Source: an uncultured Acidobacteriaceae bacterium | GTDB lineage: Bacteria; Acidobacteriota; Terriglobia; Terriglobales; Acidobacteriaceae | NCBI GenBank assembly: GCA_963703685.1 | Contig: CAVPFI010000007.1 | Location: 3,662-67,661 of the forward strand | DNA: 64,000 nt | Direction: 5' to 3' | Part shown: piece after piece, positions 22,500 through 41,526 of the stretch | How the letters are laid out: each line of letters begins with the position of its first letter | Position numbering within the stretch: the first letter of the stretch is position 1 | Translations under genes and position numbers: made by a program | The notes under the pieces: generated by a model | Told to the model about the DNA's origin: nothing | The model's database searches: none | What the model saw: the letters and a program-made list of their open reading frames with translations, nothing else

Positions 22500-22523
22500 G
22501 ATTATTTTTTCCTACCCCAACTC

Positions 22524-22840: not shown

Positions 22841-23650
22841 TCACGCCCTCAACTCCGTCCGCGCTACCTCCGCAATCCCACTAATCTCCCCCACCCCCAC
22901 AATCCGAATCTTCTCCTCCTCCATCGCGCTCAACGCAAACTGCATAACCTCCTGCGTCCGATCCAACCCGTCATCGACCACCGCCGTCAATCGCGGAGTG
23001 GCCGCAGTCATCAGTTCCATTGCGGAAGCGATCTTCGGATATCGTGCCGCCAGCAGCACCGCAGCATCAACATTCGCCTTCAACGAAACCGCATGAAACA
23101 ACTTAATCTCGTTCCCCACTCGATACCCAAAATCAAACTTGAACGGATCCCCTGGCTTCGTGTAGGGAGCCACCGGCACCGAACTCAGAAACTTCGCCAC
23201 CCCCGCCTGCTCAAATGCATCCCGCATCGCTTCCAAAATACGCCCTCGACCGGTCGGCGCCCTGGCCGGCGAGACTTTGGCCTCATCCACGAAAATCGAG
23301 GCCAGTGTTTCGATCTCTGCAGCCGGCGTCGCCGTCACCACCTGCATCGGTGCGGAAAGCTGAATCACATTCGAAAACGAGTCCTCCATCCTTCTTAAGA
23401 GCATCGCGCGATCCTTGATTTCTCCAACCTCTGCTCGAATCTCACGCAGCAACGCCTCGATCACTTCCACGTCCGCCTGCGGATCCAGACGTTGCACCCG
23501 CTGCCAATCCTTGGCGAAACGAACATCCGCAAGCACCGATCCGTTTGCACCTGCTTCCACCATCAAAACCCCAATATTTACAAACTCCTGCCTGATCGCG
23601 TGAGGCACGTACCGCAGTAGAAAGAACTCGAGTTGCAATTGCTCACCCAT
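22841..23650 (-). CDS. DUF3037-like protein
   Basis: 269 aa. The N-terminus LEFFLLRYVPHAIRQEFVNIGVLMVE matches my recollection of the DUF3037 signature (..RF.P....EF.N.GV..). Same strand as the HipA-like kinase and 61 nt downstream of it. Confidence 0.6.
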   Translation of the reverse strand: MGEQLQLEFFLLRYVPHAIRQEFVNIGVLMVEAGANGSVLADVRFAKDWQRVQRLDPQADVEVIEALLREIRAEVGEIKDRAMLLRRMEDSFSNVIQLSAPMQVVTATPAAEIETLASIFVDEAKVSPARAPTGRGRILEAMRDAFEQAGVAKFLSSVPVAPYTKPGDPFKFDFGYRVGNEIKLFHAVSLKANVDAAVLLAARYPKIASAMELMTAATPRLTAVVDDGLDRTQEVMQFALSAMEEEKIRIVGVGEISGIAEVARTELRA

Positions 23651-23665
23651 TAAGAATTGCTTTTC

Positions 23666-23698
23666 CCCTGTGCGCCTCTGTGTCCTCTGTGATTAAAG
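23666..23698. repeat. Family-C repeat between the kinase and DUF3037 genes
   Basis: CCTGTGCGCCTCTGTGTCCTCTGTGATTAAAGT. Confidence 0.65.
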
Positions 23699-23711
23699 TC
23701 TTTGCTCTTCG

Positions 23712-24515
23712 TCAAGCCTGCTCCGCCCACCCCGGAAACGGCCTCCTCGGCGAAATCCGAAACGCCTCAATCAATTCCCGCACCGTTCCCCTTCGTTCAA
23801 TCAAAGTCCGTGCCAGTTGCTCCAACGCTTCCCACTCCCCTCCGTACCATTCCGGAGGAATCTCTCCCGCCAGCTTCCACACCAACTCCTGTTCCATATT
23901 CTCAACCCGCGACAACCAGGGCTCAAACGATCCCCACCCGCGCACGCCCTCATACACTTCATTCCGCGCATAAACTCCGCGCAGCGGATAATCCGGAAAT
24001 GTCCACTCTCCCGCGTTGAAACAATATCCCTGGTCGATAAATGACGCCGTATACTTCCTTTCCCGAAGCCGCTTCCAAAACGCCGCTTGCCGTCCATTCG
24101 CGTTCCCAGTCCATTTATCCAGCACGAGCATCCCAGAAAACGTCTCCAGATTTCTCACCATCCCCAGCATCTCCACCGGAAGATAATCCAACACCTGCCC
24201 CTCCAGCGGACTCACCACATACCGCGATCCAAATTGTAGTCCCGCCTGGCACCGAATCGTATTGTGCGCTAGTTGAATACTCAGCTCCGGCGTGTGCTCC
24301 ACCAGCCACTCGTCCACCTCCACAACTTCCGTCACCGGAACGGGAAGCCCCGCTCGCTCTGCTAACCGCGTAGCCAGCATCTCATTCGCCAGCACCCGCA
24401 AATGCTGCGGATTATTCCGAAACTTCACCACATAAAAGTTTCCATCCGAGCAGCGCATCAAATGCCCCTGCGCCCCGCCCCGCATCCGCCGCACGTGTTG
24501 TACCGCCTCTACCAA
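23712..24515 (-). CDS. HipA-like Ser/Thr kinase family protein
   Basis: 267 aa. VRRMRGGAQGHLMRCSDGNFYVVKF (Gly-rich loop plus VxK), LVLDKWTGNANGRQ (catalytic-loop-like D...N) and SFIDQGYCF (DxG). TTG start in the track. Confidence 0.6.
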   Translation of the reverse strand: MVEAVQHVRRMRGGAQGHLMRCSDGNFYVVKFRNNPQHLRVLANEMLATRLAERAGLPVPVTEVVEVDEWLVEHTPELSIQLAHNTIRCQAGLQFGSRYVVSPLEGQVLDYLPVEMLGMVRNLETFSGMLVLDKWTGNANGRQAAFWKRLRERKYTASFIDQGYCFNAGEWTFPDYPLRGVYARNEVYEGVRGWGSFEPWLSRVENMEQELVWKLAGEIPPEWYGGEWEALEQLARTLIERRGTVRELIEAFRISPRRPFPGWAEQA

Positions 24516-24863
24516 ATCATCCTACGTAGGGACAGCCGTCTCGGCTGTCCGTCAAGTGCAGCTCGACACTCTCTCCGTTCACAAAGCCCGCCATCTTACC
24601 CCAACCTCGCTGTTTTTCGCTGTGACGTATGAACATCCAATAGTGATATTTCAAGGCTGGTTGGAAATGCGCCGTCAATCCCGCCTATCATGTCGCCTGG
24701 CAATGCTTTTTGGTAAGAAGTCAGAGAACCGCGATCACGCAGTTGCGCGGTTGTTATTACACTATAATTTTTCGGGATTCACAGATCGTTGCGCGTGAAA
24801 CCAGCGCTGGACATTCCGCGCTCGGCTTTCGGAATCATTAAATCCGGGCCTCGAAGAACTTAC

Positions 24864-25079
24864 TTATGCGCTACGGCGCTCCGCATGAATAGTGTCGCGG
24901 TCTCGATTTAGGGCTTTGCTCCGAGTACGGTGGAACTCGGCAAACGACATCTTCGCCGCCGTTTCCTTAACGCCGCCCTTCGGCGGAGGCTCAGGCGAAA
25001 AGCCCTTCAGACCGAACCCCAACGCTCCAACCAATCCAAAAAATATAGCCAATATCCCCAGTACACTCGAATATTCCAT
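24864..25079 (-). CDS. small single-pass membrane protein with a basic tail
   Basis: 71 aa. MEYSSVLGILAIFFGLVGALGFGL TM segment followed by a Lys/Arg-rich C-terminus. Starts 1 nt after the stop of the upstream ORF. Confidence 0.5.
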   Translation of the reverse strand: MEYSSVLGILAIFFGLVGALGFGLKGFSPEPPPKGGVKETAAKMSFAEFHRTRSKALNRDRDTIHAERRSA

Positions 25080-25080
25080 T

Positions 25081-25425
25081 TCATCTCCTACGCTCTAGCC
25101 ATGCGCCCACGAAGAATGCACCAATACTAAGAAGCAGTGTAAGAGCCAGCCCTTTCGACTTGATCCCCTTCGGTATCAGAAAATCCAAAGGTACAAAAAT
25201 CAGGACCAACACTGCTGCTTCTCGGAGATACTCTCCCAACATCTCCCAAATCTGCTTAGGTTTGGGAGCGAACTTTTCTAACGCCGCCGTGATGTCGACT
25301 ACTGCTGGCCGAACTATTTGTTCATCAAGGTACCGGGCGAAACTGTCCAGCACCTCAACAGCTTCATCTTCGGTCATTACAGGCGCTGCCTCTAGCGAAT
25401 CCAACGTGCCCAAAGTACCTTGCAC
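25081..25425 (-). CDS. small membrane protein (soluble N-terminus plus two TM segments)
   Basis: 114 aa. C-terminal AAVLVLIFVPLDFLI and LALTLLLSIGAFFVGAWL. Lies in a segment that looks lower in GC by eye. Confidence 0.5.
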   Translation of the reverse strand: MQGTLGTLDSLEAAPVMTEDEAVEVLDSFARYLDEQIVRPAVVDITAALEKFAPKPKQIWEMLGEYLREAAVLVLIFVPLDFLIPKGIKSKGLALTLLLSIGAFFVGAWLERRR

Positions 25426-25615
25426 TTCTACACCAACGTAATTCAGACCGCTATAGGAATCTCGTGCCTGTTCGGATTCCCGTACAGGCTAACACGCATT
25501 TCAGATGCCATTTGGCCATTTTCGGATGTTTTCCTTTGTGATCGAGCGCTCCGCCGCAAATGCCTTTCTCAAAAGCCGATAATGGAACACCCAGAACTGA
25601 CACCGGAAACCCAAC

Positions 25616-27158
25616 CTACCCCACCACCAAACTCCCCACCTCCACCGTCCTCTTCCGCCCCACCCGCCCCGCATCCTCTCGCCGCACCGCCAGCGCAATC
25701 GCCATCGCCATCACGCAATCGTCATGCGCTCCCTCGGCGGCCGCTCCATGTCCATCGGCATGCCGCACAAATGTCCTAAGCTCTCCTAACAATCGCGGAC
25801 TATGAAACAACTCCGGTTTCTCGATCAGCACTGCCGCCAGGTTCTCGATCATCGCCGGCCGCGTCACCACCGACGTCAGCCATCCCTCCTGCCCGCCCTG
25901 ATGAAAAATGTTCTCGTAATGCAAATCCTTCAAATGCGCCAGCACGCCGTATCCATGATTATTCCGTTCCACCGCCACCAGCGCATTTCCATACTCGTGA
26001 CCGAGCGCCACCACTCGCCGCGCCAGTTCAAACGGAGGAAAATGCCCACGCAACTCCGCACATTGCAGCCCGATCATTCGGTCAATCACCTGCACGCACC
26101 CGTAGTCCCCCTCCGACCCGCCGCCCGACGTGTCCACTCCAATGATGTACTGTCGCTGCCCCCCCAGACTCGGCGGAAGCCACACCAACATCCTTCCATT
26201 ATCCTTGGACTCGAACGGTGGCGACGCTCGCCCCGCGGCCGCGTCAACTGCCTCCATATCAAACACGCATTCTCCCGATGCCAAAAAACAAGACACTGCG
26301 TCTTCCGCATACTCCTGGCCCGCCAGTCCCCGCAGAACCTGCCACCGCGCCCGCCGCCACGCGATCTGTTCATTACTCAGCCCATGCCGCTTCATCAATT
26401 CTTTTTCTTCATCGGTAAACGGAAGCCCGACTTTTTTTCGGAAAATCCTCTTTATAAGACGGCTCATACCACCAGGGAAAAAAGTGTTGCGTGTATCCCG
26501 TCTCCGCCGCCTTTTGCCATTCCTCGTAAAACAATCCCGCCGCCCCATTCGCCGTCGACTCCAGCACAATCTCTCCGTCTGGCACCACCGCCGCCCGCAA
26601 CGACGCCAGCGTTTCCCCGCCGCCACGCGGCCAGCGGGAGACCTCCGAGCAATGTAAATTGTGGATGGTCATCCCGCGGCCCGCATTGTCATCCGCCGTT
26701 TCCACCCGGTACTCGCTGTCGAGTTTTGGAAACACAATCTGGCGGACGTTTGAGCGCGACTTCACCAGCGCTCCTCGATGCACCCGATTGTTGGGCAGTT
26801 TTTCCCAAAATCGATGCACGATGTTAAAAATCGCCTGTGCCGATTCCTCACTGTGCGCCACCTGCACGGTCAACGTCCCCGGCCGCGTAATCGTCTGCAT
26901 GAAATACCGCGCCGCAATATAAGTCGTGATCCCCACTTGCCGTGCCTTCAACACAATGTTCCGCTTGCTGCATCGTCGCGAATACTCCTGCTGCGCCCGG
27001 TTCAACTTCAGATATCTCAATCCGCCCTTCTTGATGCGAATCTTCAGCATCTTCCGGATCAGCAGATCCCGTATCGTCTGCTCCTTCGACCAATGATCCA
27101 GAAACGGCCCGAATTGTTCCACCAACTGAAGATCAGTCCACACAATGCCATCCCTCAA
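25616..27158 (-). CDS. terL: terminase large subunit, interrupted by a frameshift in an A7 run
   Basis: The 249-aa ORF holds the ATPase half (NIVLKARQVGITTY Walker A, ESTANGAAGLFYEEW, HFFPWWYEPSY). The 336-aa ORF holds the nuclease half (IIGVDTSGGGSEGDYG.., HDDCVMAMAIAL). The frames meet at T7/A7 26432-26438; removing one A gives ..KEDFPKKVGLPFTDEEK.. Confidence 0.8.
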
Positions 27159-27165
27159 TTAATCC

Positions 27166-27275
27166 GGGTGCCTCACCCTTGTCGCGTCATTTGCGACAGG
27201 GGTGGGGTTTTGACTTTCCCCGCACCGCCTCGGGTACCCCAGGTCTCGCCGATTTTGCGAGACCTGGGAATCTCG
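27166..27275. repeat. two tandem Family-A repeats upstream of the terminase
   Basis: GGGTGCCTCACCCTTGTCGCGTCATTTGCGACAGGGGTGGGGTTTTGAC and GGGTACCCCAGGTCTCGCCGATTTTGCGAGACCTGGGAATCTCG. Confidence 0.75.
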
Positions 27276-27330
27276 TATATCCGACTCCGCCACTCTTGCC
27301 AGAAAACTTGGCACAGGACGTGAAGTATTC

Positions 27331-28005
27331 CTACTTCAACAATCCCGCCGTAGCCCACCGCGCAATCTTCCCGTGCATATGAATCTGAAGTCCCCCCGTC
27401 GCCCGGTCCAGTCCCGCATTCCCCGTCTTCGCAGTTAACGTCGCATTAAACGAAGAGACAAATTCCCTCGCCGTCAACGGCATTTGAGGCTGCCCCATCC
27501 TGGCCGCGTTCTTTGCGGCTACGGTGGGAGTCTCAGCCTTCCCACTCACCAGCGGCACGATCGCCGCCAGCGATTGCACCTCCGACAGCACGATCCCCAC
27601 CACGGCCGTCACCTTAGCCTGCGTCGCCGCATCCTGAATGTGCAGCGCCGGCAACAATCCTTGCAGACTAGCCTGCACCGCTCCTATCGCCGCCTGAATC
27701 TGATTGAGAATTCCCGGCTGCGCCGTCGCATCCGCTTTCTGATACGCCGCAATCAGCGACTGCACCAGCTGCAGATCCGCTCCCGCCTGCGTCCCCGCTT
27801 TCTGAATCGTTTCTAAATCTGCCGCTGAAACACTCTTCCCTTGCAGCGCCGCCACCAGCGTAATAATATTTGCCGCTGCCGGAATCAGCGCCGCCACAAT
27901 CTGCTCTGCCTCTCCAATCCACGCCGTCGAACATCCGCCCAGGGTAATCGTCAGGCACAACACCAGCGCCAAAGCCACTTTCACCAAAGTAAAGTTATTC
28001 TTCAT
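27331..28005 (-). CDS. lipoprotein, alpha-helical and Ala/Gln-rich, containing an in-frame Family-A repeat
   Basis: MKNNFTLVKVALALVLCLTITLGGC has a lipobox (ATG at 28005, GGAGG RBS). The peptide VAAKNAARMGQP is encoded by the repeat at 27488-27538. Confidence 0.65.
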   Translation of the reverse strand: MKNNFTLVKVALALVLCLTITLGGCSTAWIGEAEQIVAALIPAAANIITLVAALQGKSVSAADLETIQKAGTQAGADLQLVQSLIAAYQKADATAQPGILNQIQAAIGAVQASLQGLLPALHIQDAATQAKVTAVVGIVLSEVQSLAAIVPLVSGKAETPTVAAKNAARMGQPQMPLTAREFVSSFNATLTAKTGNAGLDRATGGLQIHMHGKIARWATAGLLK

Positions 28006-28162
28006 ATCGATTCCTCCATGTAATTTTTCGATCGTTCTCTTAACTCGCAAATACACTCCAGCGCCGTGACCGAAATTCAGTCACCGCCGGGACAAGCCTG
28101 AATTATTTTGGGATCGCCCTGCCGCTAAGAACTGCTAACTCTAGAGTCGTTTGTCTTGATAG

Positions 28163-28226
28163 GGCGCGGCTTGTAGCCGCGCCGTAAATCAAGAAAATGA
28201 ATGACGGCTTTAGCCGCTGAGGGAGC
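28163..28226. repeat. Family-D repeat
   Basis: GGGCGCGGCTTGTAGCCGCGCCGTAAATCAAGAAAATGAATGACGGCTTTAGCCGCTGAGGGAG, near-identical to 10037-10100. Confidence 0.75.
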
Positions 28227-31200
28227 CTAAGGCGCCAACCTCACGATGAACACATCTCCCCGCCCGTTGCCCGAACCTTGGCACGTATAAACCACGCCAT
28301 TGGAATCCGTAACCGCGTTTCCTGCGCTTCCGGAGTTGCATACAAACCAGGTTGGCGGTGTCGCCGAGCTCGTCCCCCCAACCGTGATTTTGTATACCCC
28401 ATAATTAGTTCCACCGCCGCCCGGCGCGCTGAACGGATTCACGTACTGCCCCGTGCTGTAGACCGCGCCTCCAACCCACGGGGCCCCGCACAGAGAGGAA
28501 CTTCCGCCCGCAATACTGCCCAGCGTGCAATTCCAATCCGACGAGAAAGCCAAAAACTTCCCATCCGTCGATTCCTGGCTGATGGCAAACTGCACATCCA
28601 AGAAAGCGTTGCTTCCTGTATTGAATTCGTGCGTGAAACGCCAGGGCGCGTTTTGTCCCACCGGACTGGCGCCGCTGGCCCATCTCGGAGACGTGGGCAC
28701 GCAGATCACTTCTCCTTGAAAAGGAGCGTAGGGAACCGGAGACAACGTTTCATAGTTGAAAATACTTCCGCAAACCGGAGAAGCGTCGGCGCCTCCCGGA
28801 TTGTATGCAGCACTAAGATGCGAATCATAGGCATTCGCAAATTCACACGGAGGATTCGTATAAGTGATCCCCACCGCATACGCTCTACTATCACATGGTG
28901 TTGGCTGCCAACTGATCAGCGTATCCCCCAACGTATACGGATTCGCCGACTGGTAGACATCGAGATAAGCTCCGGTGGCATATCCAAATGTGCCAACCGG
29001 ACAAGCCGATCCTCCAATGCTGTTGTCCAGGCAGCCTTGGCCATTGTCAAACAGACGACCATTGCCCATGGCGTAATGGTTGAGTCCCGCGCGGTACATG
29101 TTGATCCCGGACGACCCGGACGAGAGCAGATTGACGGCAAATACATCTCCACGGCAGTTGCCGCTGGAGCCAGTTGTGCAGGTAGCCGAACCAGTCGTTG
29201 ATCCTAGAGTGGATTGCCAGTCGGAAGTAAACAAAAACCACCGCCCGGTCTGCGACATGGCACCGATCGCCTCATCGGTGGTGAAGTCCGGATTCGCCGC
29301 GGTATTTTCGGTCGAAGCAAATCTCCATGGATTCCAAGCTCCATAGGTCGGGGTAAAGCAAAGAATCTCATTGGACCACGCCTTCGTGGTCCCCCCCGCA
29401 ACAAAGGTAGAACCGCAAAATGGCCATGAATCGTTGAGCTCATTCCAGCCGAAGTGCATGTCTAGGCCAGACTGAATCCCGCCACTTGGCAGAGCATAGG
29501 TGAGACCGGTTGGAGTCGGACACGTCCCAATCGTGCAGATGTTAATAAATTTTGGGATACCGTTCCCTGGATTGTTAACCCACTGAAGCAGTCCCTGTGT
29601 GTCGTGCCCTCCGCATTCCGCTGGCGAGATTTCACACAGAGAGAACAGGCTTCCGGTCAAAAAGGAGGCGGCGTAGTTCCACTCGAAATACGAACTGCCG
29701 GAGCAATTCGACGCCGAGGTCCAATCCAACCACCCCTGCGACCCTCCAACCTTGCCGAGTTTGGCGTTGTGAAGATAAGCAGAGCACGGCGTTCCAGAAA
29801 TCGCTCCCGTGGGTCCCCAATCTCCCGCCACTGCGTCAGTGACAGTGTTGAGCACGCGCACGCCAGAACCGACTCGATACACCGCAACATATTGCGCTCC
29901 TTGATCGCCCTGGGTTCCCGTGCCGATGTTCGTCCACGTACATGTTCCATCCGAGGTAGTCCCCGCCACCGTTTGATTCCACGGATTCGGCTCGGTTGAT
30001 CCGCTCGTGCAGTTCGAGGAAATCTGGTAGAGATAAGAACCGGAGTTATGTAAGCTGGGAAAAATGATCGAGGCGGAGATAACTCCGGTCACATAGCCGC
30101 TCGCGCTATAAGCGTTGCTGGCGGTCCAATCCGGGCCGCCGCCGAAACCAACCGCGAAGTCAGAATCGCCCTGCGTAAGACTTCCAGTCGTGGAATAGCT
30201 CACGCGAAATCCCGATCCCAAACCATTCGCGGAACTGGTGAAGTTGTAAACGGTCGTCGGGCTAGGCGGCGTACAGGTCGCGCAATTGCCGGCGAAGTTG
30301 TAGGACTCGATGGTGGACCCGCTCAAAACGTAGAGCAGATTATTCCTCGCTGGACAAACTCGGCTCCAGCCGATCACTGCTGCCCCGGTCACGAAACCAT
30401 TCGTTGAGCTCAAGGTCGTGCTATACATCCGCGGGTTCGAGGAGAAATTAAAATTCAGTGGATAGGACCAGCCTCCCGTGTTCGAGACCACGATCATCGA
30501 ATCGTCGCAACTGAAGAGATTCTCTTCGCCTGAGCCCGAGGCCGTGGTGTTGATAGTGTAGTACTGATTTGTCGGCTGGTTCGTGCTGGAATCCGTAATC
30601 CGATAAATGGTGGTACCAAAATTCGGGTCGGTAAAACTGGTTCCGGCACCCGTTAAATTCCCGCAGGCATTCAGCGATCCTGTGCAGGGGTTGGGGCCAA
30701 CCTGCGGGGGAACCGATGGCAACGTAACAGCATTCAGATCCGTACGCGCGCAGTAATTGGGCGGCCCGCAAGAAGCGAAGCTGGCAAACGGATTCCAGAC
30801 GTAGTTGTTGCCGGTGTCGCATCCATTCGATCCAATAAGGTTCGCCTGCACCCCGATCGAGACGTAGGTCATCGCGTAGCTGCCGCGGTTGTCCCGGGTA
30901 AAGAAGCCGCACCCTCCGCTGGTCAGCGCCGGATAAGAGCCCGCCGGATTCATGGCAAACGTTCCGCCCGAGCAGTTGTAGCCCGTCCCTCCACTACAGG
31001 TGGTTACCGACTGCCATCCAGTCGTGGTGTTTAAGGTCACATACTCATTCAGGGCGGAGCTGTAACAGATCTCCCAGTTCCCCGAGCCCTGCGTGCCATT
31101 GATATTGGAGTAGCTCGCGTTGTAACCGTACACATTGGTTGAGGTCGTTTGACAGAACCGTGTCCCGTCATAAGACACGCCAGCGAAGCTTTCGTAAGCC

Positions 31201-33839
31201 GGACCAATCGCGACTCCGGTATTAGTCCAGGTCAATGACCCATCCGCAACGGTAGTCATTAAATCAGGATGGCCGGTGGCCGCCGGAATGAAAGCCGGCA
31301 CAGAAGACCCCGAGGTACCGCTGGCGCTCGTCAGTTGATAGGTGAAAACCGGAGGCCCTCCCAGACTTTCCCACGCCGCCGTGCCATCAGAATAGGCACC
31401 CCACGAAGTTGTATGGCACGGGCTACCCGCCGTGCTCCAGATCGGCTCCGAAGAGCTCGTCGTTCCCGCAGTCACCAACTTAAACGAGCAGCCCACGGGA
31501 TTGTTCAGCACTGGAAGAATAATGTCGCCCGCCGCATAAAACGCGTAACTTGCCTGCCAGTCCGGAGCCTGCGACTGAATAAAATTCACATCGTCCAGAT
31601 ACTCCGTCGCCGTCCCACCGCTCCCGTTAAGGTCGATCTGAAATTGAATCCCGGAAGTCTCCGCCCACCCGCTCGGCAAAGGTCCCGCCGGTTCCGTGAG
31701 ATTAATTTGGTGCACCGTTCCGTCGATCGTCAGACTGTCGTAATGCATGCACGGCCAACCGGCTGTGCAGGACACGTCTCCAGCCACGCGATGCACGTTC
31801 CAAGTGAGGTGATGCCAGGTCCCCGTCGACAGACTACAGGCCAGCGATGTTGGCACCCAAGTCCCCAGATACTGATTAAAAATATCCCACACCCCGCCAA
31901 TCACGCATTGCGTGCCGAACATGAACTCCGTACCTGTCCCCCCGATATAAATAAACTGGAACATATCGTACTCGAGTTCCCCCACATTGCTTTCCGAAGG
32001 AACATAGACTTCGTAGTCTCCGGTAAATTGCGTGGCCTTGTCATCCGCTCCAGGCTTGTTGATGAAAAGCGCATTGGAATTGGCCGTGCCCGTGATGCTG
32101 ATTTGCATCGCCTCCCCATCCAACGAAGGCGTCGAATTGTTGACAGTCTGCGTTCCGGCAGGCGTTCCCGACCCTCCCGGATTACACGACGGCAACACGC
32201 AAATCGACCAGTTAGTAAGACTGTCATCCAGACTGCTGGTCGTATTTACTTCGCTATAAGTAACATACTGCCCGCTGGTATAACTATGGCTCGGCTGCCA
32301 TGCCGCCACCAACGACCCCATCGGAAGTCCGTATTGAAAATCAACCTCCGGGGCGCCGGTAATTCCCACGCCCCCACCTACACCGACCGTGAATGTCCCT
32401 GTAGACGAGTTGATCGTGTAGGGCGTGACTTGCGTGCTATTAGTGGCTCCATGATAGATAGCAGTGTTCGTCCAGTCGAAGTATCCGGAGCCGAAATTAA
32501 AGCTGGAACTGCTCGATCCAGGATTTGATTGATTCAAATTCGCAGCGATCGCCGGGCTGCAGACCAGCGTCGTAGGATTGAAGGGAACAATCCAGTTGTC
32601 TCCTTGATTGTCGTTCACGTGCAGCAGCGTGTCATTCGCATTAAACAGCGGTGCGGCATCGCCAGAACCTTGGAGCCCCGCTGATTTGCTTGCATTCGGC
32701 GAGGTTCCAGAGGCCGCCGTCGCCCCGTCCGTGCACCGCACTACGGGGCTCGGAGTTCCGCTCGGAAAAGACGTGTCATAAAAAACCGACCCGTTCTTCG
32801 TCAGTCCTCCCATATTCGGGACCGCAGGCCAATCTACAATGCCCGTACCGGTATATGCACAGTAGTTAGGAGGCTCGCACGGACTCGACACTTCACCTAT
32901 CGTGAAGTGCGAACTTGTCGGCGGAGTCGCTCCATAGATCGAGTACCCCGCAAACACATGCGCTCCAATCTCCCACCCACTCCCGTAGCTGTTCTGATTC
33001 ATCCCATTAATGTCGATCTGATATGCCGTCCCCAGATTTTCTCCCGCATCCACCACCGGAGACTTCGCCGTCGGTCGAAAGTCAACCACCATGCTCGAAG
33101 CCGGCGACTTGTAATAGAAACTCCCGTCCGTTCCAGCCTCAAGCGTTCCGCTCGTCAGCCAGTTCACCAGTCCCGTGTTCGTCTTGATCGTCGCCCCGCT
33201 GTTCTGCAGATCCTGCATCAGATTCGTGATCTCACTCCCACCCACCGGATCGTTATTCACCAGTTCATTCAAATGCCAGAAAATGCCCCACGGTACGCCC
33301 CACAGCATCTGTTTCCACACCAGCGCCTGCACCTTCTGATTCAACGCCGCCGGCGCGATCCCCATCCATGTCGGATTCACTCCAAAGCTGGTCACATTCT
33401 GTACATCGAACCCGCTTGCATACGTGTCCTTCACACCCAGATCTTCCTTGAGCGCCCCACGCGCGCCGCCATAAGGCACGCCCGCCGTAATCCCCTGCAT
33501 CGTCGGCGTCTCATATCCGCCGGGATAAACATACACCGGAGTCACCGGCAGTCCCGTCAGGTTTGTCGTCATCCACTGCCGCGACAACGTGATTTCATCC
33601 GACGTGAGTCGCGTCGCATCCAACTGCATGTGATACACCGCGCTCTTCACGTCCTGCGGACTCACATCCGCCAAATCCTGCGCCAATAGCGCCGACTCCG
33701 TGTTATACGAACATCCAGTCCCATATGGCCCCTGGCACACAGTAATCTCCGTAGCCGTGAACTTTCCGGTTGCCAGCAGCGCTAGCCGTAACGCCTTGAT
33801 TGTTCCCTGCGCCTGACCTTGCGCCAGGTTATAACTCAC
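28227..33839 (-). CDS. giant Cys/Trp/Gly/Thr-rich secreted carbohydrate-active-like protein; probably the C-terminal 1,870 aa of a larger protein
   Basis: The N-terminus carries the distal NodB-deacetylase-like motifs (VYVYPGGYETP; VPWGIFWHLNEL). A lectin/jelly-roll-like segment (..EYDMFQFIYIGGTGTEFMFG..TWHHLTWNVH..) follows. The module starts CEPPNYCAYTG and CGPPNYCARTD precede ..FTDPNFGTTIYRITD propeller-like regions. Confidence 0.75.
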   Translation of the reverse strand: MSYNLAQGQAQGTIKALRLALLATGKFTATEITVCQGPYGTGCSYNTESALLAQDLADVSPQDVKSAVYHMQLDATRLTSDEITLSRQWMTTNLTGLPVTPVYVYPGGYETPTMQGITAGVPYGGARGALKEDLGVKDTYASGFDVQNVTSFGVNPTWMGIAPAALNQKVQALVWKQMLWGVPWGIFWHLNELVNNDPVGGSEITNLMQDLQNSGATIKTNTGLVNWLTSGTLEAGTDGSFYYKSPASSMVVDFRPTAKSPVVDAGENLGTAYQIDINGMNQNSYGSGWEIGAHVFAGYSIYGATPPTSSHFTIGEVSSPCEPPNYCAYTGTGIVDWPAVPNMGGLTKNGSVFYDTSFPSGTPSPVVRCTDGATAASGTSPNASKSAGLQGSGDAAPLFNANDTLLHVNDNQGDNWIVPFNPTTLVCSPAIAANLNQSNPGSSSSSFNFGSGYFDWTNTAIYHGATNSTQVTPYTINSSTGTFTVGVGGGVGITGAPEVDFQYGLPMGSLVAAWQPSHSYTSGQYVTYSEVNTTSSLDDSLTNWSICVLPSCNPGGSGTPAGTQTVNNSTPSLDGEAMQISITGTANSNALFINKPGADDKATQFTGDYEVYVPSESNVGELEYDMFQFIYIGGTGTEFMFGTQCVIGGVWDIFNQYLGTWVPTSLACSLSTGTWHHLTWNVHRVAGDVSCTAGWPCMHYDSLTIDGTVHQINLTEPAGPLPSGWAETSGIQFQIDLNGSGGTATEYLDDVNFIQSQAPDWQASYAFYAAGDIILPVLNNPVGCSFKLVTAGTTSSSEPIWSTAGSPCHTTSWGAYSDGTAAWESLGGPPVFTYQLTSASGTSGSSVPAFIPAATGHPDLMTTVADGSLTWTNTGVAIGPAYESFAGVSYDGTRFCQTTSTNVYGYNASYSNINGTQGSGNWEICYSSALNEYVTLNTTTGWQSVTTCSGGTGYNCSGGTFAMNPAGSYPALTSGGCGFFTRDNRGSYAMTYVSIGVQANLIGSNGCDTGNNYVWNPFASFASCGPPNYCARTDLNAVTLPSVPPQVGPNPCTGSLNACGNLTGAGTSFTDPNFGTTIYRITDSSTNQPTNQYYTINTTASGSGEENLFSCDDSMIVVSNTGGWSYPLNFNFSSNPRMYSTTLSSTNGFVTGAAVIGWSRVCPARNNLLYVLSGSTIESYNFAGNCATCTPPSPTTVYNFTSSANGLGSGFRVSYSTTGSLTQGDSDFAVGFGGGPDWTASNAYSASGYVTGVISASIIFPSLHNSGSYLYQISSNCTSGSTEPNPWNQTVAGTTSDGTCTWTNIGTGTQGDQGAQYVAVYRVGSGVRVLNTVTDAVAGDWGPTGAISGTPCSAYLHNAKLGKVGGSQGWLDWTSASNCSGSSYFEWNYAASFLTGSLFSLCEISPAECGGHDTQGLLQWVNNPGNGIPKFINICTIGTCPTPTGLTYALPSGGIQSGLDMHFGWNELNDSWPFCGSTFVAGGTTKAWSNEILCFTPTYGAWNPWRFASTENTAANPDFTTDEAIGAMSQTGRWFLFTSDWQSTLGSTTGSATCTTGSSGNCRGDVFAVNLLSSGSSGINMYRAGLNHYAMGNGRLFDNGQGCLDNSIGGSACPVGTFGYATGAYLDVYQSANPYTLGDTLISWQPTPCDSRAYAVGITYTNPPCEFANAYDSHLSAAYNPGGADASPVCGSIFNYETLSPVPYAPFQGEVICVPTSPRWASGASPVGQNAPWRFTHEFNTGSNAFLDVQFAISQESTDGKFLAFSSDWNCTLGSIAGGSSSLCGAPWVGGAVYSTGQYVNPFSAPGGGGTNYGVYKITVGGTSSATPPTWFVCNSGSAGNAVTDSNGVVYTCQGSGNGRGDVFIVRLAP

Positions 33840-35193
33840 GCTGTCTACCGCTCCTGTTACGCGTAATGGTCAGCGTCTTCCCACTAATGCTCATCGACGC
33901 TGCCGTTCCCGTTCCGGTGTACTGAATTTCCAGCGCATCGGTATTTGTATAATACGTATGCGACATCGAATGCGACGTCACATCCCGCCCCGCATTCACC
34001 CATCCCTGAAATTCCGACACCAGCGTCTGCGCCAGCGGATACCCCACCGTAATCGCCGCTCCCACCGGTACTCCCAACCCATCCGCAATCGGCAGCACCG
34101 TATTCGCGTAATACGTATCCGCTCCGGCCGTCATTCCCGCATCGTCCACCGTCAACGTCACCTGCGCCGGATACCTCTGCCACGCCTGCACCGCCGGCGC
34201 GGTGTCCTGAGCAACATTACCCGCTCCCGCCACCGGACCCGTCCCGCTCGTCCACTCCACATCCGTCGATCCCGCCACCGCCAAACTTGACGCATAAAAA
34301 TGACAGTATGAATAAGTTACAGCTGCGGTATTGTCGACCAGCGCCCCGTCGCGATTCCCATATGCCTTGTCATTCACCATCGTGATCGCGGTCGCCGCTC
34401 CATCAAAGCGGAATCCGTCGTAATTCATATGCGCTTCCGAGTTGTAGATCTTGATATCCCCCGGCCCCGGCGCGCTCTCGTTCACATAAAATCCCAGCGG
34501 TTGCGTCCCTTGCGGGATCATGGAGTCGACTTCCATATTCGCGAAGACCAGATGATCGCTCGCCCCCTGCACATACACGCCATATTGATCGAACCAGTCC
34601 ACCAGCAAATGCTGAAATGTAAGCCATGACTTTCCATTGACGTTGATCACCGGCGTATTACTCAACGCCATCGGCACAATCGGCCCGCTATAGTAGTTAG
34701 CTGGAGTGCCCACTGAGAAAACATAAATAAATCCGTTCGCCAGATAAAAATCCCACTGCGCCGTAAGATTCGACGTCGATGCAGCCACCTTCTGTCCCCA
34801 CACCGATCCGAACAAACAAAAATTAACCGTAGAAAAAGTCGCAGGCACCGCCGCCTTCCACGCATTCCCTGTCACCAGCACCCACGGCGACGAAGGCACC
34901 GCGTAGTATCCGGTCAAATTCGGTGGCGCCCCCATCCCATAGGCGTCAAACGTAATCGGATTTCCTGCAGCCCCCGAAGAACCCGGCGTCAAACTCTCAT
35001 TCCAAACATCTCCCCGACGAAACAAAATCGAATCTCCCGGCAAGAAGGCCTGCGCATTCACCTTAGCCACCGTTTGCCAGGCCGCACCCGACGAAGTCCC
35101 CGCATTCGAATCGCTCCCCGCGCTCGAACTCACGTAGTAAGTAGTCGCCGACGCCGAACTCAACAAACACGCGAAGACGCCACACATCAACAT
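33829..35193 (-). CDS. secreted right-handed beta-helix protein with the proximal half of a NodB polysaccharide-deacetylase domain
   Basis: Signal peptide MLMCGVFACLLSSASA (an alternative start at 35217 lies in a repeat). TTYYVSSSAGSDSNAGTS..AWQTVAKVN..PGDSILFRRGDVW is typical of pectate-lyase-fold N-termini. C-terminus has TLTVDDAG and SHSMSH (NodB motifs 1-2). Overlaps the next ORF by 11 nt. Confidence 0.7.
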   Translation of the reverse strand: MLMCGVFACLLSSASATTYYVSSSAGSDSNAGTSSGAAWQTVAKVNAQAFLPGDSILFRRGDVWNESLTPGSSGAAGNPITFDAYGMGAPPNLTGYYAVPSSPWVLVTGNAWKAAVPATFSTVNFCLFGSVWGQKVAASTSNLTAQWDFYLANGFIYVFSVGTPANYYSGPIVPMALSNTPVINVNGKSWLTFQHLLVDWFDQYGVYVQGASDHLVFANMEVDSMIPQGTQPLGFYVNESAPGPGDIKIYNSEAHMNYDGFRFDGAATAITMVNDKAYGNRDGALVDNTAAVTYSYCHFYASSLAVAGSTDVEWTSGTGPVAGAGNVAQDTAPAVQAWQRYPAQVTLTVDDAGMTAGADTYYANTVLPIADGLGVPVGAAITVGYPLAQTLVSEFQGWVNAGRDVTSHSMSHTYYTNTDALEIQYTGTGTAASMSISGKTLTITRNRSGRQREL

Positions 35194-35211
35194 TGTGTTC
35201 CTGACTAGCCT

Positions 35212-35310
35212 TGTCATCCTGAACAGCCCTGTCATTCTGAGCGGACCTGTCATCCTGAGCGGAGCGGGACGATTCGCAAAGCGAATCGCCCCGCGCCGTC
35301 GAAGGATTCC
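35212..35310. repeat. Family-B repeat with a triplicated 5' arm
   Basis: TGTCATCCTGAAC..TGTCATTCTGAGCGG..TGTCATCCTGAGCGG, then hairpin GCGGGACGATTCGC aaa GCGAATCGCCCCGC, then GTCGAAGGATTCC. Confidence 0.8.
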
Positions 35311-35448
35311 TTCCCTGTCTGACCGACCAACGCCTCTGATAGGAATTTCCACCACGCCATCTCCTGACTCATCCAGCCCGCCAACAAAAAAGCCACCAGC
35401 ATCGCCGATGGCCTCTGTAAACCTCTGTGTCCTCTGTGGTTAAAGCTC

Positions 35449-35676
35449 TTAAAACTCGCCCGCCTGCACCAAAATCCGCTCACACCCCTTCCGATACTTC
35501 ACTCGCGCACTCGCGCACTTCGGCGGATCGATCCGCTCATCACAATGCAACAACGTAATCTCCGAAGCGCAATCGAGGGGGATCGCAAGATTCGGCAGCG
35601 ACGACCGCACCGCCCGCCGCCCGCATCCCAACCCACAAAACAAAACCGCCAGAAACAAAATCAATTTATGCCCCAT
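35449..35676 (-). CDS. small Cys-rich lipoprotein
   Basis: MGHKLILFLAVLFCGLGC has a lipobox. 75 aa with six further Cys residues. GAGGAAGTT lies before the ATG at 35676. Confidence 0.55.
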   Translation of the reverse strand: MGHKLILFLAVLFCGLGCGRRAVRSSLPNLAIPLDCASEITLLHCDERIDPPKCASARVKYRKGCERILVQAGEF

Positions 35677-35893
35677 AACTTCCTCGCCAAAATAAACTCC
35701 AAGAAAAGTCCACAAGGGTGCCCCATTTCTCGCAGCCTCTGCGAGAAGTGGGAGTCTCCACTCTAGTGCCAATAAAAAAGCCACCAGCTCTAGCCAGTGG
35801 CCACGAATCCACCCACATCTCTTTATATGGGGACAGCCGCCCCCGGCTGTCCTTCGAGCGCAGCTCGATCTTCAGCCCGCAAGCTAAGCTCCC

Positions 35894-38800
35894 TCACTGC
35901 AACTGTCTCACCGCAATCCGCACCGCATAAGTCCCGGTCCCCGTCGTGCAACCCGTATACGAAGTCGAATAAGTAATGTTGGCGCTCCCTGCGGACCACA
36001 GCGTCAAAGTTCCACTCCCGAAATTCGTAGCGTTCCCCAACGGCAACGAATTCCCTCCCGAAACCCCCGCTCCACTCAACGGTACTTGCAAAGTCTTCGC
36101 GCCCACCTCATCCGTCCAGCCGATCGTCACCGCCGTGGCCGCGCTCCCCGCCGTAGTGCAAGCCAATGTCGAGTCGAGATAGTAATTCACCACATACTGC
36201 CCCGCCCCACACGTCGCGCTCGCGCACAATGCCGTAGACGCAACCGCCGCCGTCAACCCAGTCGACGATGCCGTCCCATACACCGGCGCCAGCCCCGTGC
36301 CCGCCGTAGTCTTCCCGTTGTAAGTCGTCGCCGTACCGCTCATCACCAAATTTCGCCCCAGGTAAAAGTCTCTTACCCGCAGCGACGACGTTCCAATATC
36401 CCGCGTATTGTCGTTGAACGGTTTGAACGCCGTATTTGTATCCACTGCCCACTTGCACGAATTATTTACTCCGAAGCAAAGCCCGCGCTGCGATCCCCCT
36501 CCAGATCCCTGCTGGGTCTGCAATTCGTAATACGTGTCCCCCGGAACATACGCCAGCGACGCCCGCTCGTAACTCGTCGCACTCGTATAAGTCCCATACA
36601 CGTTGAAGGTCTGCACGTTTGGCCCGTTGTACTGCTCCACCGTATTCGCGTTCGTCACGTAAACCGGCGCTGCTCCCAGCCCATTCGTATTCGTCCAGTA
36701 TGCGAATTGCGAAACCGCCCCGCTCCCCCCAATCGTCCCGGTCCCCGGTGGGCACCCCACCGTCGTAATCGTCAGATTCCCCGTACCATCCGTGCACAGC
36801 GGCTGTCCCGTCCCAGTCACCGTCCCCGCCGTCATTAAGTTCGCCGACGGCGTCCCAATCGCACTCGTAAGCGCCGTCCCGTTCAAAGTCAGACTCGGCG
36901 TAACCACTCCCGTGCCAAAATATCCATTCCGCACTCGAAACGCCGTCGCTCCCAAGTCGTACGAGTTGTCGACGAACGGTTTCAAGAAGTCATTCTGATC
37001 AATCCCCCACCGCGCTGCACCATTCACCCAAAAAGCCAATCCGCGTTTCGTCCCCGTCCCCAACCCCTGCGCATCGATCTTGAAATAATTCGTATTCACC
37101 GTGTCGTAGCCTAGGAACATCCTCTCGTAGTCGCTCGCATCGCTCCGCGTCCCGTAAACGTTCAGTCCCTGCGGAGTCGTCCCGTTGTACTCTCCTAGAT
37201 CATTGGCATCTTCCTGCCACAAATTCGAAAAGTAAGAACTCGTCGCGGTCGTCGCCACTTTTACCGGCGTCCCACCATTCGCCGAGATATAGAAATTCCC
37301 ATCATTGGAGATCCCTAAAGCCGAAGTCCCCGCCCCCGCCGCCGCCATCGCCGTTCCCGGAACCGGCGAACTCACCATCCACGGCCCCGCAACTTGCAGT
37401 TGTCCATTCACTGTCAGGTTTCCGTTCACCACTGCCGAACTCCCGCTTCCAGGATTCACAGTGACATTCGTCGCGGCTGAGATGTCCGTCGTCCCTCCGT
37501 GCGCCGTGGCAAACGGAATAATTCCACCGGCCGTCTCATCCCGAATCCACAGCGATTGATCGCCGCCTGATCCCACGGCATAGATTTGCCAACGATTAGT
37601 ACTGCCGTAATCAAGAATCGCAAGTCCGCAATCCTGATAGGCCGTCGCTCCGCACTGGAGCTGAAAGAATCCACCGCTATTCACCGGGTCATTCAGCGAG
37701 AACGACTGCGAGATGAGCTGGTCATTGATCGTCCACCATCGCGGCACGCCCCAGCTGTAGTCGAAACTCATGTCGCCGCCCGTAACGAAGTTCGCCGAAG
37801 TCATCTTCGACGGCGGCTGATCGGCTTCCCAGTAAGGTGTGATCCATGTATTCGCAACCGCGGTCGTACTGCTAAAGAAAGGTCCGTGCGAAATTCCGCC
37901 GCCATAGCTGGTCAGCGCATTCGTCACCGCCGTAATGCAGTTCGCGGCCAGCTGCACCGTGTATTCGTTAAGCACCGAGGAGATCGTCGTAGTCAGCAGC
38001 CCACCGGAACTCCCAGCTCCCGCAACGTTGATCGCAGCTCCGGCCTGCGTATCCTTGCCGAACTGCGCGGACTGTGACGTAACTATAGCCTGTCCCGCCG
38101 GGCACGAAGCATCTCCCACTGTGCGAGTGGCATTGGCAAACATGTGCGTGGAACTATCCACACTGATCGTGCCCGAACTTTCACCGGCCACACTTGCGGC
38201 TACCCGAGAAAACGAAAAGTTGGTTGTACTGGTAAACCCAGTAACGTAATAGACGCCGTTGTAGTTGACCGTTCCCGCGATAACGATCCAGATGCCCTTC
38301 TGAATTCCCGGAACCGCACTCGCCGTCACAACGCTGCACGTAAACGAGGAAGCCGAGCAACTGATGCTCGATAGGTTGGAACTCGCTCCTGCCGCAATGC
38401 CCGCGTCGCGCCCGTTCGCCGTCGTGAAGGAACTGATGTGCGTATTCCCCAGGTTGGCATCATCCTCAATTCCCCAACCGCCCGCGTTGTAAGCCATGAA
38501 TCGAGTTTCCACGCCCGCGCTCGAATCGCCGCCGTGAATATAAAGGTTGTCATGCCAGTTGCCGTCGCCTTGCCCGCCCTTTACTTCCCATGAATCCGGC
38601 TGGCCGGTAAATCCGTTGATGACAACATTCGTCCCGTCAATATGAATCCCGTCGCGCGGATTGCAGTTCGCCTCCACCCGCTCAATCGTCGGCTCCCCGC
38701 CATAAACTAGAACCCCATCCGCAGCGCCCGTGAACGGATAAACCAGCGCATTGCCCGAACTGTAGCAAGCCGCCCCGCCGTTCGGCCAAGGCTTCCCTCC

Positions 38801-40130
38801 GCCAATTTCTTCAATGTCCCGTAGCGCGCACCCCATACACGACGGGTCGATCTGGAACCCCGTCACTCCGGCGGCAAATAGGAATACTGGAGCTCCCTGC
38901 CACATTTCATTCGCATTGCCTTCAATGACTGTTCCGTTGTATTTCAAGTGAAAAGTGCAACTCGAATAATAGTCGACGGTTGAATACGAGTCCCCGCCCT
39001 GCGTAGACGCGGCAACTTTCCTGACCAGCAACCGCTTCCCCGGATTCGCGTCAATGAACGCTTGAAAACTCGCGCAGTTGTCCGTCGTTCCATCCGCAAC
39101 CACCGCTGGATAGTCCGCCACGTCTGCAATAGCTTTCGTCTGATAAATGCCCGGTTGTCCGACTCCGTTCGAAACCAGTGCCGAGCCGTCCGCCACGCCC
39201 GTCGCGCCGATGCAAGCACCCCAAGTCCCATTCCCCAGCAAACAACTTCCCGCGGTTGCGCTGCCCGTTCCCAATTCGCTCGCCGGTACCAGTCCGGAAA
39301 TCAAATCCGCCTTCACCGACACTCCCTGATCCACATATTGCTTGGTCGCGGCCTGCAGCGCCGACGAAGGATTCGCCGGGAGATTTATTGGCCCCGTCAT
39401 CGTGCCGCCTGCGGTCGGTAAGAAAATTCCCCCTCCCAGGTTCGATACCGACTGATCCACATAGCGCCTTATTCGCAACCTGCCCCGTGCTCGTCGGAGC
39501 CGGAACGTTCGGCGCCGCCGAGAATGTCTTGGCCCCACTGATCGTTTCCGTTCCACTCAGATGCACCACGGCACTGTCATTCGCCTTCGTCGCCAGCTCC
39601 GAATTCACGTACTGCATCGACACTGGTTGACCCGCCACGCCCGACCCGGGTGTCGTCCGCACCGTCGCCAGGTTCGCCGGAGAAGTTGTTGGCACCATCC
39701 AGTACTCCGTCCTCACTTCGCCCGGCCCCAGCTGATAGACCACCGTGTAATACACCTCAGCCGGACTCGCTCCCACATTCGGCACCAGCGCTACGCTCAG
39801 CGTCCCATTCGCACCCAGCGTCGTAGTCGTCGTGCCCCCAGCCACCGCCGCTCCGCTTGCGGTCAGAAACGCCGGCCACGTAATGATCAGGCTTCCCTGC
39901 GCAGTGCTCCCGTCCGCCAGATAAACTGTATCCGCGATCGTGGTCGTCGCCGGTCCACTCTGCGGGGCAGGCGCCGCTCCCGAAGCCGTCAGCCCAAACC
40001 CGGCAACCATCGCCACGGCCATCCACCAATAAAAAAGCCGCCCACTAGGGCGGCGACCCGCGTCAAACATCGTCTCCTCCATCCACCTAGCCTCGGACGC
40101 ATTCGCCCGGGCCCTCTTCTTCGAACTCAA
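35894..40130 (-). CDS. tail-fibre-like / pectate-lyase-fold secreted protein of about 1,400 aa, split by an apparent 1-nt frameshift near 39467
   Basis: The 359-aa ORF is sensible up to ..APTSTGQVANK. The 1,220-aa ORF is sensible from RYVDQSVSNLGGGIFLPTAGGTMTGPINL..AATKQYVDQGV (phage-fibre-collar-like repeats). ADVADYPAVVADGTTDNCASFQAFIDA marks a beta-helix start. N-terminal signal/TM segment LFYWWMAVAMVAGFGLTASGA. Confidence 0.7.
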
Positions 40131-40277
40131 TTAGAACTTCTCAACTTCTAACTCAATTAGACTTCTCAACCCCTTGTCATCCCCACCGAAGCAGTGGAGA
40201 GCCTGCCCTGAGCGAAGTCGAAGGGGATCTGCTGTTCTCGGTAGCCAAGCAGTCCCTATCTAATCTGCCCAACGTCC

Positions 40278-41489: not shown

Positions 41490-41526
41490 TGCCCCATACC
41501 CAAATCTCCTTGAACCACATCCTCGC

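Follow-up and report, generated by a model that had tools for sequence, protein, structure and literature searches.

A giant prophage gene of Acidobacteriaceae, interrupted by a single extra base, probably encodes one exported multidomain carbohydrate-active protein

We analyzed a stretch of 64,000 nucleotides (hereafter the window) from contig CAVPFI010000007.1 of an uncultured Acidobacteriaceae bacterium (assembly GCA_963703685.1), which carries on its minus strand two very long, overlapping open reading frames (ORFs) with the motifs of a NodB-like deacetylase distributed between them. We conclude that the two ORFs are a single gene of a temperate phage in an Acidobacteriaceae/Sulfotelmatobacter-type genome, whose 2,329-residue product is probably an exported, multidomain, carbohydrate-active protein. 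Comparison with the nearest relatives, in which the split is absent, identifies it as an ordinary one-base lesion or artefact.

Results

One gene with a private extra base

The ORF listing places the two minus-strand frames at 33829..35355 (508 residues when counted from the first GTG) and 28227..33839 (1,870 residues), with an overlap of 11 nt. Counted from the methionine at 35217, the upstream ORF encodes 462 residues and starts with MTRLVRNTMLMCGVFACLLSSASA followed by TTYYV. Its translation contains TLTVDDAG and SHSMSH, while VYVYPGGYETP, GARGAL, and VPWGIFWHLNEL are found in the downstream ORF. Immediately 5' of its GTG, the downstream frame reads ...VTGAVDSVSYNLAQG; it is open for eleven codons before that GTG, reading PLRVTGAVDSV, and the two frames can be joined only inside approximately 42 nt. 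Deletion of one base and initiation at the methionine at 35217 yield a 2,329-residue protein with zero internal stops, to which the residue numbers below refer. The layout of the ORFs, their overlap and the motifs quoted by the first-pass annotation of this DNA all agree with the listing and the translations.

Two close relatives of the locus allow the junction to be read at the DNA level. L003 is the ENA contig ERZ25039506:contig_53424, found via its identically encoded portal protein; it is 99.67% identical to window positions 17332..38005 (20.7 kb) and contains an intact ORF of 2,391 residues. L001 is a JGI metagenome contig encoding the orthologue P0121 (2,374 residues), which is intact and 93.5% identical across all 2,329 residues. 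In the DNA alignment, the coding strand at the junction is ATTACGCGTAAC in the window, ATTAGCGTAAC in L003, and ATCACGGTGACG in L001. The gene and the lesion are thus defined as follows.

28227..35217, minus strand: whole gene, a coding sequence of 2,329 codons after repair; stop codon at 28227-28229; 93.5% identity to P0121 over the full length
33861..33863, minus strand: single extra base (C on the coding strand, inside ACGCGT); absent in L001 (90.5% nucleotide identity) and in L003 (99.67%)

More distant relatives give the same picture. A search with the repaired 778-residue N-terminal part retrieved 378 relatives (E ≤ 0.001; 90%-clustered protein set), the best of which are single proteins spanning 95-100% of this N-module with 73-81% identity. 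Across the junction, relatives read KTLTI(T/S)VTGA(A/S)DSVSYNLAQGQ, matching the proposed repair, and among the 378 retrieved no relative that was read residue by residue over the junction is split there. Relative to L001, the ratio of nonsynonymous to synonymous substitution rates (dN/dS) amounts to 0.09 for the gene as a whole, with values of 0.08 and 0.075 upstream and downstream of the break, respectively, which shows that each half has been evolving as coding sequence. The break is located inside an inserted beta subdomain of the CE4-like domain described below, away from any domain boundary. It parts the metal-binding motifs (DD and HSxSH) from the YPGG motif, the invariant arginine, and the FWH motif, and neither fragment could therefore be an active deacetylase.

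We read the two ORFs as one gene with a private frameshift, the product of an assembly error or else of a very recent mutation. The first-pass annotation had predicted that a 1-nt indel near 33860 interrupts a single protein, in agreement with the extra base at 33861-33863 and the intact orthologues of 2,374 and 2,391 residues. It had also named a comparison of fused and split homologues as a check: the relatives read over the junction are fused there, and among them the two independent proteins that would have spoken against a single gene were not seen.

A genuine two-subunit enzyme, which was the alternative offered by the first-pass annotation, or a programmed +1 frameshift that produces the full-length protein is very improbable. 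By inspection, an AGGAG-like sequence is present 11 nt before the downstream GTG, and rare AGG/AGA codons occur within the overlap, as such a mechanism might use. However, the Shine–Dalgarno-like GGGAG is ordinary coding sequence in the intact orthologue too, the closest relative simply lacks the extra base, and the break falls within the strands of the inserted beta subdomain, and no relative whose sequence was read at the junction is split there. A programmed site is not conserved either: in the homologues, including the 99.67%-identical relative, the reading frame is uninterrupted. Truncated homologues (P0075 and others, approximately 490-560 residues) were considered as a sign of a conserved split point and rejected, since they cross the junction and end at varied downstream sites; several of them come from long contigs of Microflora Danica-type assemblies. 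A frameshift in locus L068 lies approximately 15 codons from that of the window, at a different site.

A predicted signal peptide followed by a beta-helix and a CE4-like domain

The N-module of the repaired protein comprises the following elements.

35146..35217, minus strand: Sec-type signal peptide, residues 1-24 (MTRLVRNTMLMCGVFACLLSSASA); n-h-c layout, with ASA directly before the conserved TTYYVSSS
34222..35145, minus strand: right-handed beta-helix, residues 25-332; Pfam Beta_helix (PF13229) above its gathering score
33117..34221, minus strand: CE4/NodB-like deacetylase domain, residues 333-700, with the frameshift inside; weak Polysacc_deac_1 match, motifs, and Foldseek matches
33621..33948, minus strand: beta-rich insertion of approximately 105 residues between CE4 motifs 2 and 3, holding the frameshift; strand-rich subdomain at residues 95-200 of the AlphaFold2 model
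32961..33080, minus strand: short conserved tail of the N-module, residues 713-752 (SPVVDAG...WEIGAH); match below threshold to the NCBIfam model "choice-of-anchor Q" and invariant residues in the family alignment

A hydrophobic stretch and a small-x-small motif occupy the signal-peptide position in 134 of 139 family members, where the sequence varies and the character is constant. The beta-helix cap follows this signal-peptide-like N-terminus directly, likewise in 134 of the 139, with no anchor domain between the two. The beta-helix is assigned by a PF13229 match of 31.2 bits (cut-off 25.9; E 2e-7) at residues 237-355 of the 508-residue ORF, and the same family matches 17 of 41 distant relatives, in agreement with the pectate-lyase-fold N-terminus of the first-pass annotation. 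Over approximately its first 77 mature residues, the protein shows homology to the N-terminus of GH136 lacto-N-biosidases (PDB 7v6m, 5gqc; E 2e-12). The homology does not continue over the catalytic beta-helix of GH136: only the first 72-88 residues align, and the NCBIfam model scores 45 bits against a cut-off of 2500.

For the domain that follows, an exhaustive HMMER search yielded 244 relatives, down to approximately 25% identity. Polysacc_deac_1 (PF01522) matches 23 of the 41 distant relatives (E ≤ 0.01, best 2e-10), and the related DUF2334 matches three. Fifteen residues are invariant in 51 aligned members: D358, D359, H416, S417, S419, H420, Y564, P565, G566, G567, R586, W643, F646, W647, and H648. 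They include CE4 motif 1, (T/S)xDD, in TLTVDDAG (D358, D359), and motif 2, H(S/T)xxH, in HSMSH (H416, H420). In the region of motifs 3-5, conservation extends to YPGG (564-567), the invariant R586, and WGIFWH (H648); motif 3 departs from the canonical sequence, and a DxxDW could not be assigned. H648, in the FWH motif, is taken as the putative catalytic-acid histidine from its analogy to CE4 motif 5.

The AlphaFold2 model of residues 333-762 has a mean predicted local distance difference test score (pLDDT) of 65.9. Its first half and the beta insertion of approximately 105 residues are confident, while model residues 233-283 and 358-430 (358-407, 412-430) are poorly predicted. Foldseek matches to CE4 structures include BA3943 (7bkf, 6hm9), with a probability of 0.93-0.98 and a TMt of 0.39-0.45, and 2vyo, with a TMt of 0.50; other barrel-plus-insert folds, e.g., pyruvate kinase, score like the CE4 structures. 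In the insertion, block-mean pLDDT values are 81-97, save for one ten-residue block at 60, and the best Foldseek matches are neck and baseplate chains of phage 812 (E 3e-5), with a TM-score of only 0.19. A search of PDB sequences with the CE4 region returned no match. The conserved motifs 1, 2, and 5, the Pfam matches of the distant relatives, and the weak Foldseek similarity to CE4 structures support the NodB/CE4 assignment made by the first-pass annotation, although the window protein itself falls below the Pfam cut-off. We place the domain in the NodB superfamily, of which it appears to be a catalytically competent member; its strict family membership is only partly demonstrated.

Propeller-class modules with two insertions in the C-terminal part

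The remainder of the protein consists of a propeller-class domain in three segments, separated by two inserted modules.

32247..32891, minus strand: propeller-class domain, first segment, residues 776-990 (starts CEPPNYCAYT); contiguity in homologues and AlphaFold2 model of a homologue
31575..32246, minus strand: inserted module of approximately 225 residues, residues 991-1214 (called a jelly-roll in the first-pass annotation); absent from P0124, P0127, and P0129
30771..31574, minus strand: propeller-class domain, second segment, residues 1215-1482; contiguity in homologues and AlphaFold2 model of a homologue
29115..30770, minus strand: inserted second unit, residues 1483-2034 (CGPPNYCART ... 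RGDVFAVNLL); start and end motifs as in a complete C-terminal unit
28230..29114, minus strand: propeller-class domain, last segment, residues 2035-2329 (ends RGDVFIVRLAP); shares 46-68% identity with the C-termini of P0122-P0134

CEPPNYCAYT is located at residue 780 and CGPPNYCART at 1483, while RGDVF(A/I)V occurs at residues 2023 and 2320; by inspection, the last segment also holds a PD40-like STDGKFLAFSSDW motif. In P0124, P0127, P0129, and P0131, BLAST mapping finds the counterparts of residues 780-990, 1215-1482, and 2035-2329 directly joined, and residues 991-1214 and 1483-2034 are therefore inserted modules. Both insertion points correspond to predicted loops of the homologue model, at model residues 216-221 and 486-490, respectively. 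The first insert recurs in the unrelated architectures of P0138-P0145 (38-53% identity) and has no Pfam match. The second is approximately 25% identical to the part of P0128, P0130, and P0135 to which residues 780-990 align as well, and it is complete only in P0121 and in L003.

The AlphaFold2 model of residues 823-1587 of the insertion-free homologue P0129 is all-beta (predicted TM-score 0.70, pLDDT 67.6). It has 89 PDB and 32 BFVD matches at E ≤ 0.001; beta-propellers dominate among the matches listed, with TM-scores of only 0.1-0.3, and include WD40 double propellers, tricorn, DDB1, FG-GAP, and the podophage tail tubular protein B. The description "propeller-like" in the first-pass annotation appears appropriate at the level of fold class, for this homologue model. 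Sequence searches add little: a weak, sub-threshold CBM_5_12 match covers residues 972-990, on one of several W-x5-Y-x2-G-(D/Q)-x-V motifs, and Pfam at E ≤ 10 on the isolated C-terminal segments found nothing beyond it. No match was obtained in PDB sequences with the 1,557-residue C-terminal part, and BLASTP at E ≤ 1e-3 detected no internal repeats in the giant protein.

A conserved place in a prophage

The gene sits within a prophage, in which it is flanked by a second giant gene and a lipoprotein gene.

11750..45800 (approximate ends), all genes on the minus strand: prophage of approximately 34 kb; portal, large terminase subunit (TerL), adaptor, and DSPc genes; flanked by host genes; negative GC skew across it
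35894..40130, minus strand: upstream giant tail-fibre-like gene (1,391 residues in L001); BppL_N match (E 1.7e-5), weak tail-spike PHROG match, and fibre-type motifs
27331..28005, minus strand: downstream conserved lipoprotein of 224 residues (lipobox LGGC); identical in L003

The phage genes are recognized by matches to a portal protein (PF04860, E 5e-47), TerL (PHROGs, E 1e-14 to 2e-19), a head-tail adaptor (phrog_442), and a DSPc phosphatase, and the element is located between a host 2-oxoacid dehydrogenase operon and a TPR/PilZ region. No tRNA gene or att-like direct repeat was found at its ends, and no integrase was found. The gene order S24 repressor ... DSPc, fibre-like giant, beta-helix/CE4 giant, lipoprotein, TerL, HipA_2, DUF3037, portal recurs in L001, in L004-L006, and in L007, the single IMG/VR contig matched. 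PHROGs contains no family for either of the two ORFs, and tblastn against 50,697 GenBank phages gave no match. The neighboring 1,220-residue ORF was considered as a paralogue and rejected, with nothing significant by BLASTP.

Relatives of the beta-helix/CE4 gene are present in 78 species-representative genomes, almost all of them metagenome-assembled genomes (MAGs) of Acidobacteriaceae or Candidatus Sulfotelmatobacter. The fibre-like gene and DSPc lie upstream in all 67 loci with enough flanking sequence; on the downstream side, TerL is present in 60 of 65 loci and the portal gene in 52 of 65, and lipoprotein homologues follow the giant gene in L004, L006, and 65 of 78 loci. Locus L088, which encodes the distant relative P0172, contains a repressor, DSPc, and both giant genes, namely a 1,770-residue gene and the beta-helix/CE4 gene; it has no head genes and looks like a prophage remnant. 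The host E2 gene of the 2-oxoacid dehydrogenase operon abuts the prophage in the window (10318-11750) and also adjoins the L088 remnant (16138-17454), and it is found within 10 kb in nine of 78 loci; the shared neighbor suggests a conserved integration site.

The fibre-like protein starts, like its neighbor, with a signal-peptide-like segment (MFDAGRRPIGWLFYWLMAVAMIAGFGLTVSGAAFA followed by PQ in L001). Its gene is intact in L001 and is frameshifted by a private extra base at 39464 in the window; in L003 it is frameshifted by a different extra base approximately 25-40 nt downstream. Terminator-like hairpins, recognized by consensus match only, flank the pair formed by the giant gene and the lipoprotein gene (35802..35779 upstream, 27170-27208 downstream) and fit an independently transcribed unit, while no sigma-70-like promoter was found upstream of the gene. 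The downstream hairpin, with a 17-bp stem between the lipoprotein and terminase genes, could be a terminator or a packaging-related structure.

Further observations concern other genes of the element. TerL (25616-27158, minus strand) is split into ORFs of 249 and 336 residues at CCGAAAAAAAGTC, an A7 tract at approximately 26430-26437. The tract is also present in the 99.7%-identical L003, while L001 has AAAAAGGG and an intact TerL of 509 residues. A -1 slippery site at the A_AAA_AAG tract was considered and rejected, since the required shift is +1/-2; the split could reflect a homopolymer error, transcriptional slippage, or a dead terminase. Genes for a HipA_2-type kinase and a DUF3037 protein lie between terminase and portal (22841-24515, minus strand); the pair is found in L004, L006, and 64 of 78 loci and looks like conserved toxin- or defence-like cargo in the head module. 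An 811-residue putative tail gene (12806-15241, minus strand) carries, relative to the 780-residue version in L003, a one-base indel at 12972, 55 codons before the stop, that gives it a different C-terminus. At the other end, approximately 2.7 kb of the window (44963-47711), between the left end of the prophage and a PilZ response-regulator gene, are missing from the ERZ contig. This segment includes a TPR/Trans_reg_C gene (45853..47643) and reflects an insertion or deletion at the prophage junction.

Discussion

Proposed role of the protein

The most likely role of the protein is that of an exported, phage-encoded polysaccharide depolymerase/deacetylase. The intact protein would be exported through Sec. 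Its conserved N-module would then act on the host envelope or on extracellular polysaccharide (EPS), with the beta-helix cleaving the polymer as a glycanase or lyase and the metal-dependent CE4 domain removing O- or N-linked acetyl groups. The variable propeller-class modules at the C-terminus, two of them inserted into loops, would target host-specific glycans. Such an activity might serve the phage in remodeling of the receptor or of EPS, either for lysogenic conversion and exclusion of superinfecting phage or for clearing of the matrix at release. The copy in the window would be mis-assembled or freshly inactivated.

Several results weigh against this proposal. The window protein scores only 15.4-17.2 bits against PF01522 (gathering score 23.1), over profile positions 8-80 of 124, which cover motifs 1 and 2 only. 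About half of the AlphaFold2 model of the CE4 domain is of low confidence, with TM-scores to CE4 structures of 0.3-0.5, and the propeller model was built on the homologue P0129 instead of the window protein. The signal peptides were judged from hydrophobicity and AxA motifs rather than with a dedicated predictor. Family members with a source name are called "hypothetical protein" or are named after the beta-helix domain only. Finally, the gene takes up approximately 20% of the phage genome and is always paired with the fibre-like gene, as expected of a virion receptor-binding protein rather than an accessory enzyme that is exported.

Depolymerases with a beta-helix are classic examples of tailspikes, and the first-pass annotation had listed a phage depolymerase as one possibility, which gains weight from the location of the gene in a prophage. 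The main rival reading is that the protein serves a phage with a short tail as a tailspike of the virion or as its receptor-binding depolymerase, with the conserved N-module as structural and enzymatic core, variable C-terminal propellers that set the host range, and a hydrophobic N-terminus that is no functional export signal. The gene adjoins a fibre-like gene with BppL_N and tail-fibre motifs inside a phage genome whose tail module is small and in which no other receptor-binding candidate was recognized; the combination of conserved N-terminal and mosaic C-terminal parts is typical of receptor-binding proteins, and the podophage GP4 fibre domain PF23140 is found in one of the distant relatives of the CE4 module. 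Nevertheless, we consider a tailspike the less likely reading. Of 139 members, 134 have a canonical n-h-c signal peptide, and the mature N-terminus is a beta-helix cap homologous to secreted GH136 enzymes. No particle-binding domain precedes it, and a cytoplasmic protein with an N-terminal virion-attachment domain is likewise at odds with this start. In addition, neither ORF has a PHROG match, the terminase and head modules separate the gene from the tail genes, hairpins bracket it, and it is kept in the L088 remnant, which lacks head genes.

Pursuing the export reading, we tentatively suggest a broader scheme, which we regard as possible rather than probable. A widespread lineage of temperate Acidobacteriota phages may devote about one third of its genome to two giant fibre- or spike-like proteins with cleavable Sec signals, which would be exported to the envelope of the lysogen together with the conserved lipoprotein, as a system for editing and binding surface glycans, and would not be parts of the virion. 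Their hypervariable, domain-in-domain propellers would track the diversity of host glycans, and the genes would be kept in head-less remnants. That phage proteins resembling fibres and spikes should carry export signals is mildly surprising.

Origin of the extra base

We lean slightly towards an assembly or base-calling error, in which case the true genome has an intact gene. The extra base is private to the window in comparison with both a 99.67%-identical contig and an outgroup, and there is no signal of relaxed selection. Single-base indels that are private to one of the two sequences occur in prophage genes of both the window and the ERZ contig, and some of them form compensating pairs separated by 16-24 nt. 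Across the 78 genome loci (L010-L087), the 2.3-kb N-module contains 13 frameshifts in seven of 47 long-read bins (Microflora Danica, Flye-style assemblies), some of which have up to 3-4, compared with one in 31 short-read MAGs. On the other hand, the site of the extra base is no homopolymer, and in approximately 8 kb of flanking host coding sequence the two assemblies differ by no frameshifting indel where about two would be expected under uniform noise, although this is weak evidence.

A real and very recent inactivating mutation in an already decaying prophage is a plausible alternative, if not quite a probable one. The TerL split at an A7 tract common to the window and the ERZ contig, with an intact gene in L001, the independent breaks of the fibre-like gene in these two sequences, and the indel at 12972 in the 811-residue gene would all be expected of decay, as would host genes devoid of frameshifting indels. 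However, two independent frameshifts approximately 40 nt apart in the same gene of near-identical strains resemble noise rather than biology. Furthermore, dN/dS shows no sign of relaxation, though the window and L003 differ by only 15 substitutions, and the excess of frameshifts in long-read bins extends across the family.

Implications

Annotators should merge the two ORFs, or flag them as a single frameshifted gene, and should not enter them as a split deacetylase. The frameshift carries no biological message unless reads prove it real, and the excess in long-read bins calls for caution with pseudogene calls in such assemblies. The family is unnamed and uncharacterized and is built from known parts, in which a signal peptide precedes a beta-helix, a CE4-like esterase, and propeller modules. 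It comprises the 378 relatives, is represented in at least 78 genomes at species level from Acidobacteriaceae/Sulfotelmatobacter of peat and soil, and is fixed in one prophage lineage. Acidobacteria are dominant among soil bacteria and rich in EPS, and very little is known of their phages. If it is directed against acidobacterial surface polysaccharides, an enzyme of this size, whether exported or carried on the virion, would bear on phage host range, lysogenic conversion, and the turnover of polysaccharides in soil.

Comparison with known systems

With the CE4 family (PF01522), which includes peptidoglycan and chitin deacetylases and the fold of Bacillus anthracis BA3943, the window protein shares the invariant DD, HSxSH, and the C-terminal (F)WH. 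It differs in the beta subdomain of approximately 105 residues between motifs 2 and 3, in a motif 3 that consists of YPGG and a separate invariant arginine instead of RxPY, and in the lack of a clear DxxDW motif 4.

Beta-helix tailspikes and capsule depolymerases of the P22 gp9 type, together with tailspikes that have deacetylase or esterase activity, are also phage-encoded, combine a beta-helix with a polysaccharide-modifying activity (putative in the window protein), and have a mosaic, fast-diversifying C-terminus, and here, too, a fibre gene is adjacent. In contrast to them, the window protein has a predicted Sec signal peptide and no N-terminal particle-binding domain, carries a CE4-like esterase, and is, with 2,329 residues, several times larger. 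The pattern of conservation is also different: in this family the enzyme is conserved and the propeller variable, whereas classic tailspikes keep the anchor constant and vary the beta-helix. The deacetylases known from tailspikes are of the SGNH type.

The GH136 lacto-N-biosidase LnbX (PDB 5GQC, 7V6I, 7V6M) shares the N-terminal 77 or so residues (TTYYVSSSxGSDSNxGT...); it is a secreted, glycan-active beta-helix protein, as predicted for the window protein. The likeness ends at the N-terminal cap, and the remaining architecture is unrelated.

A polysaccharide deacetylase has been noted among the predicted genes of Acidobacteriota viruses (PMC11924767), and approximately 5% of 64,678 prophage-encoded carbohydrate-active enzymes carry signal peptides (PMC13507307). 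The window gene resembles the latter group in being a temperate-phage gene for a carbohydrate-active enzyme that is predicted to be exported. Unlike these enzymes, it is not occasional cargo but a fixed core component of its phage family, present in all 67 syntenic loci, and its product is a giant, multidomain protein.

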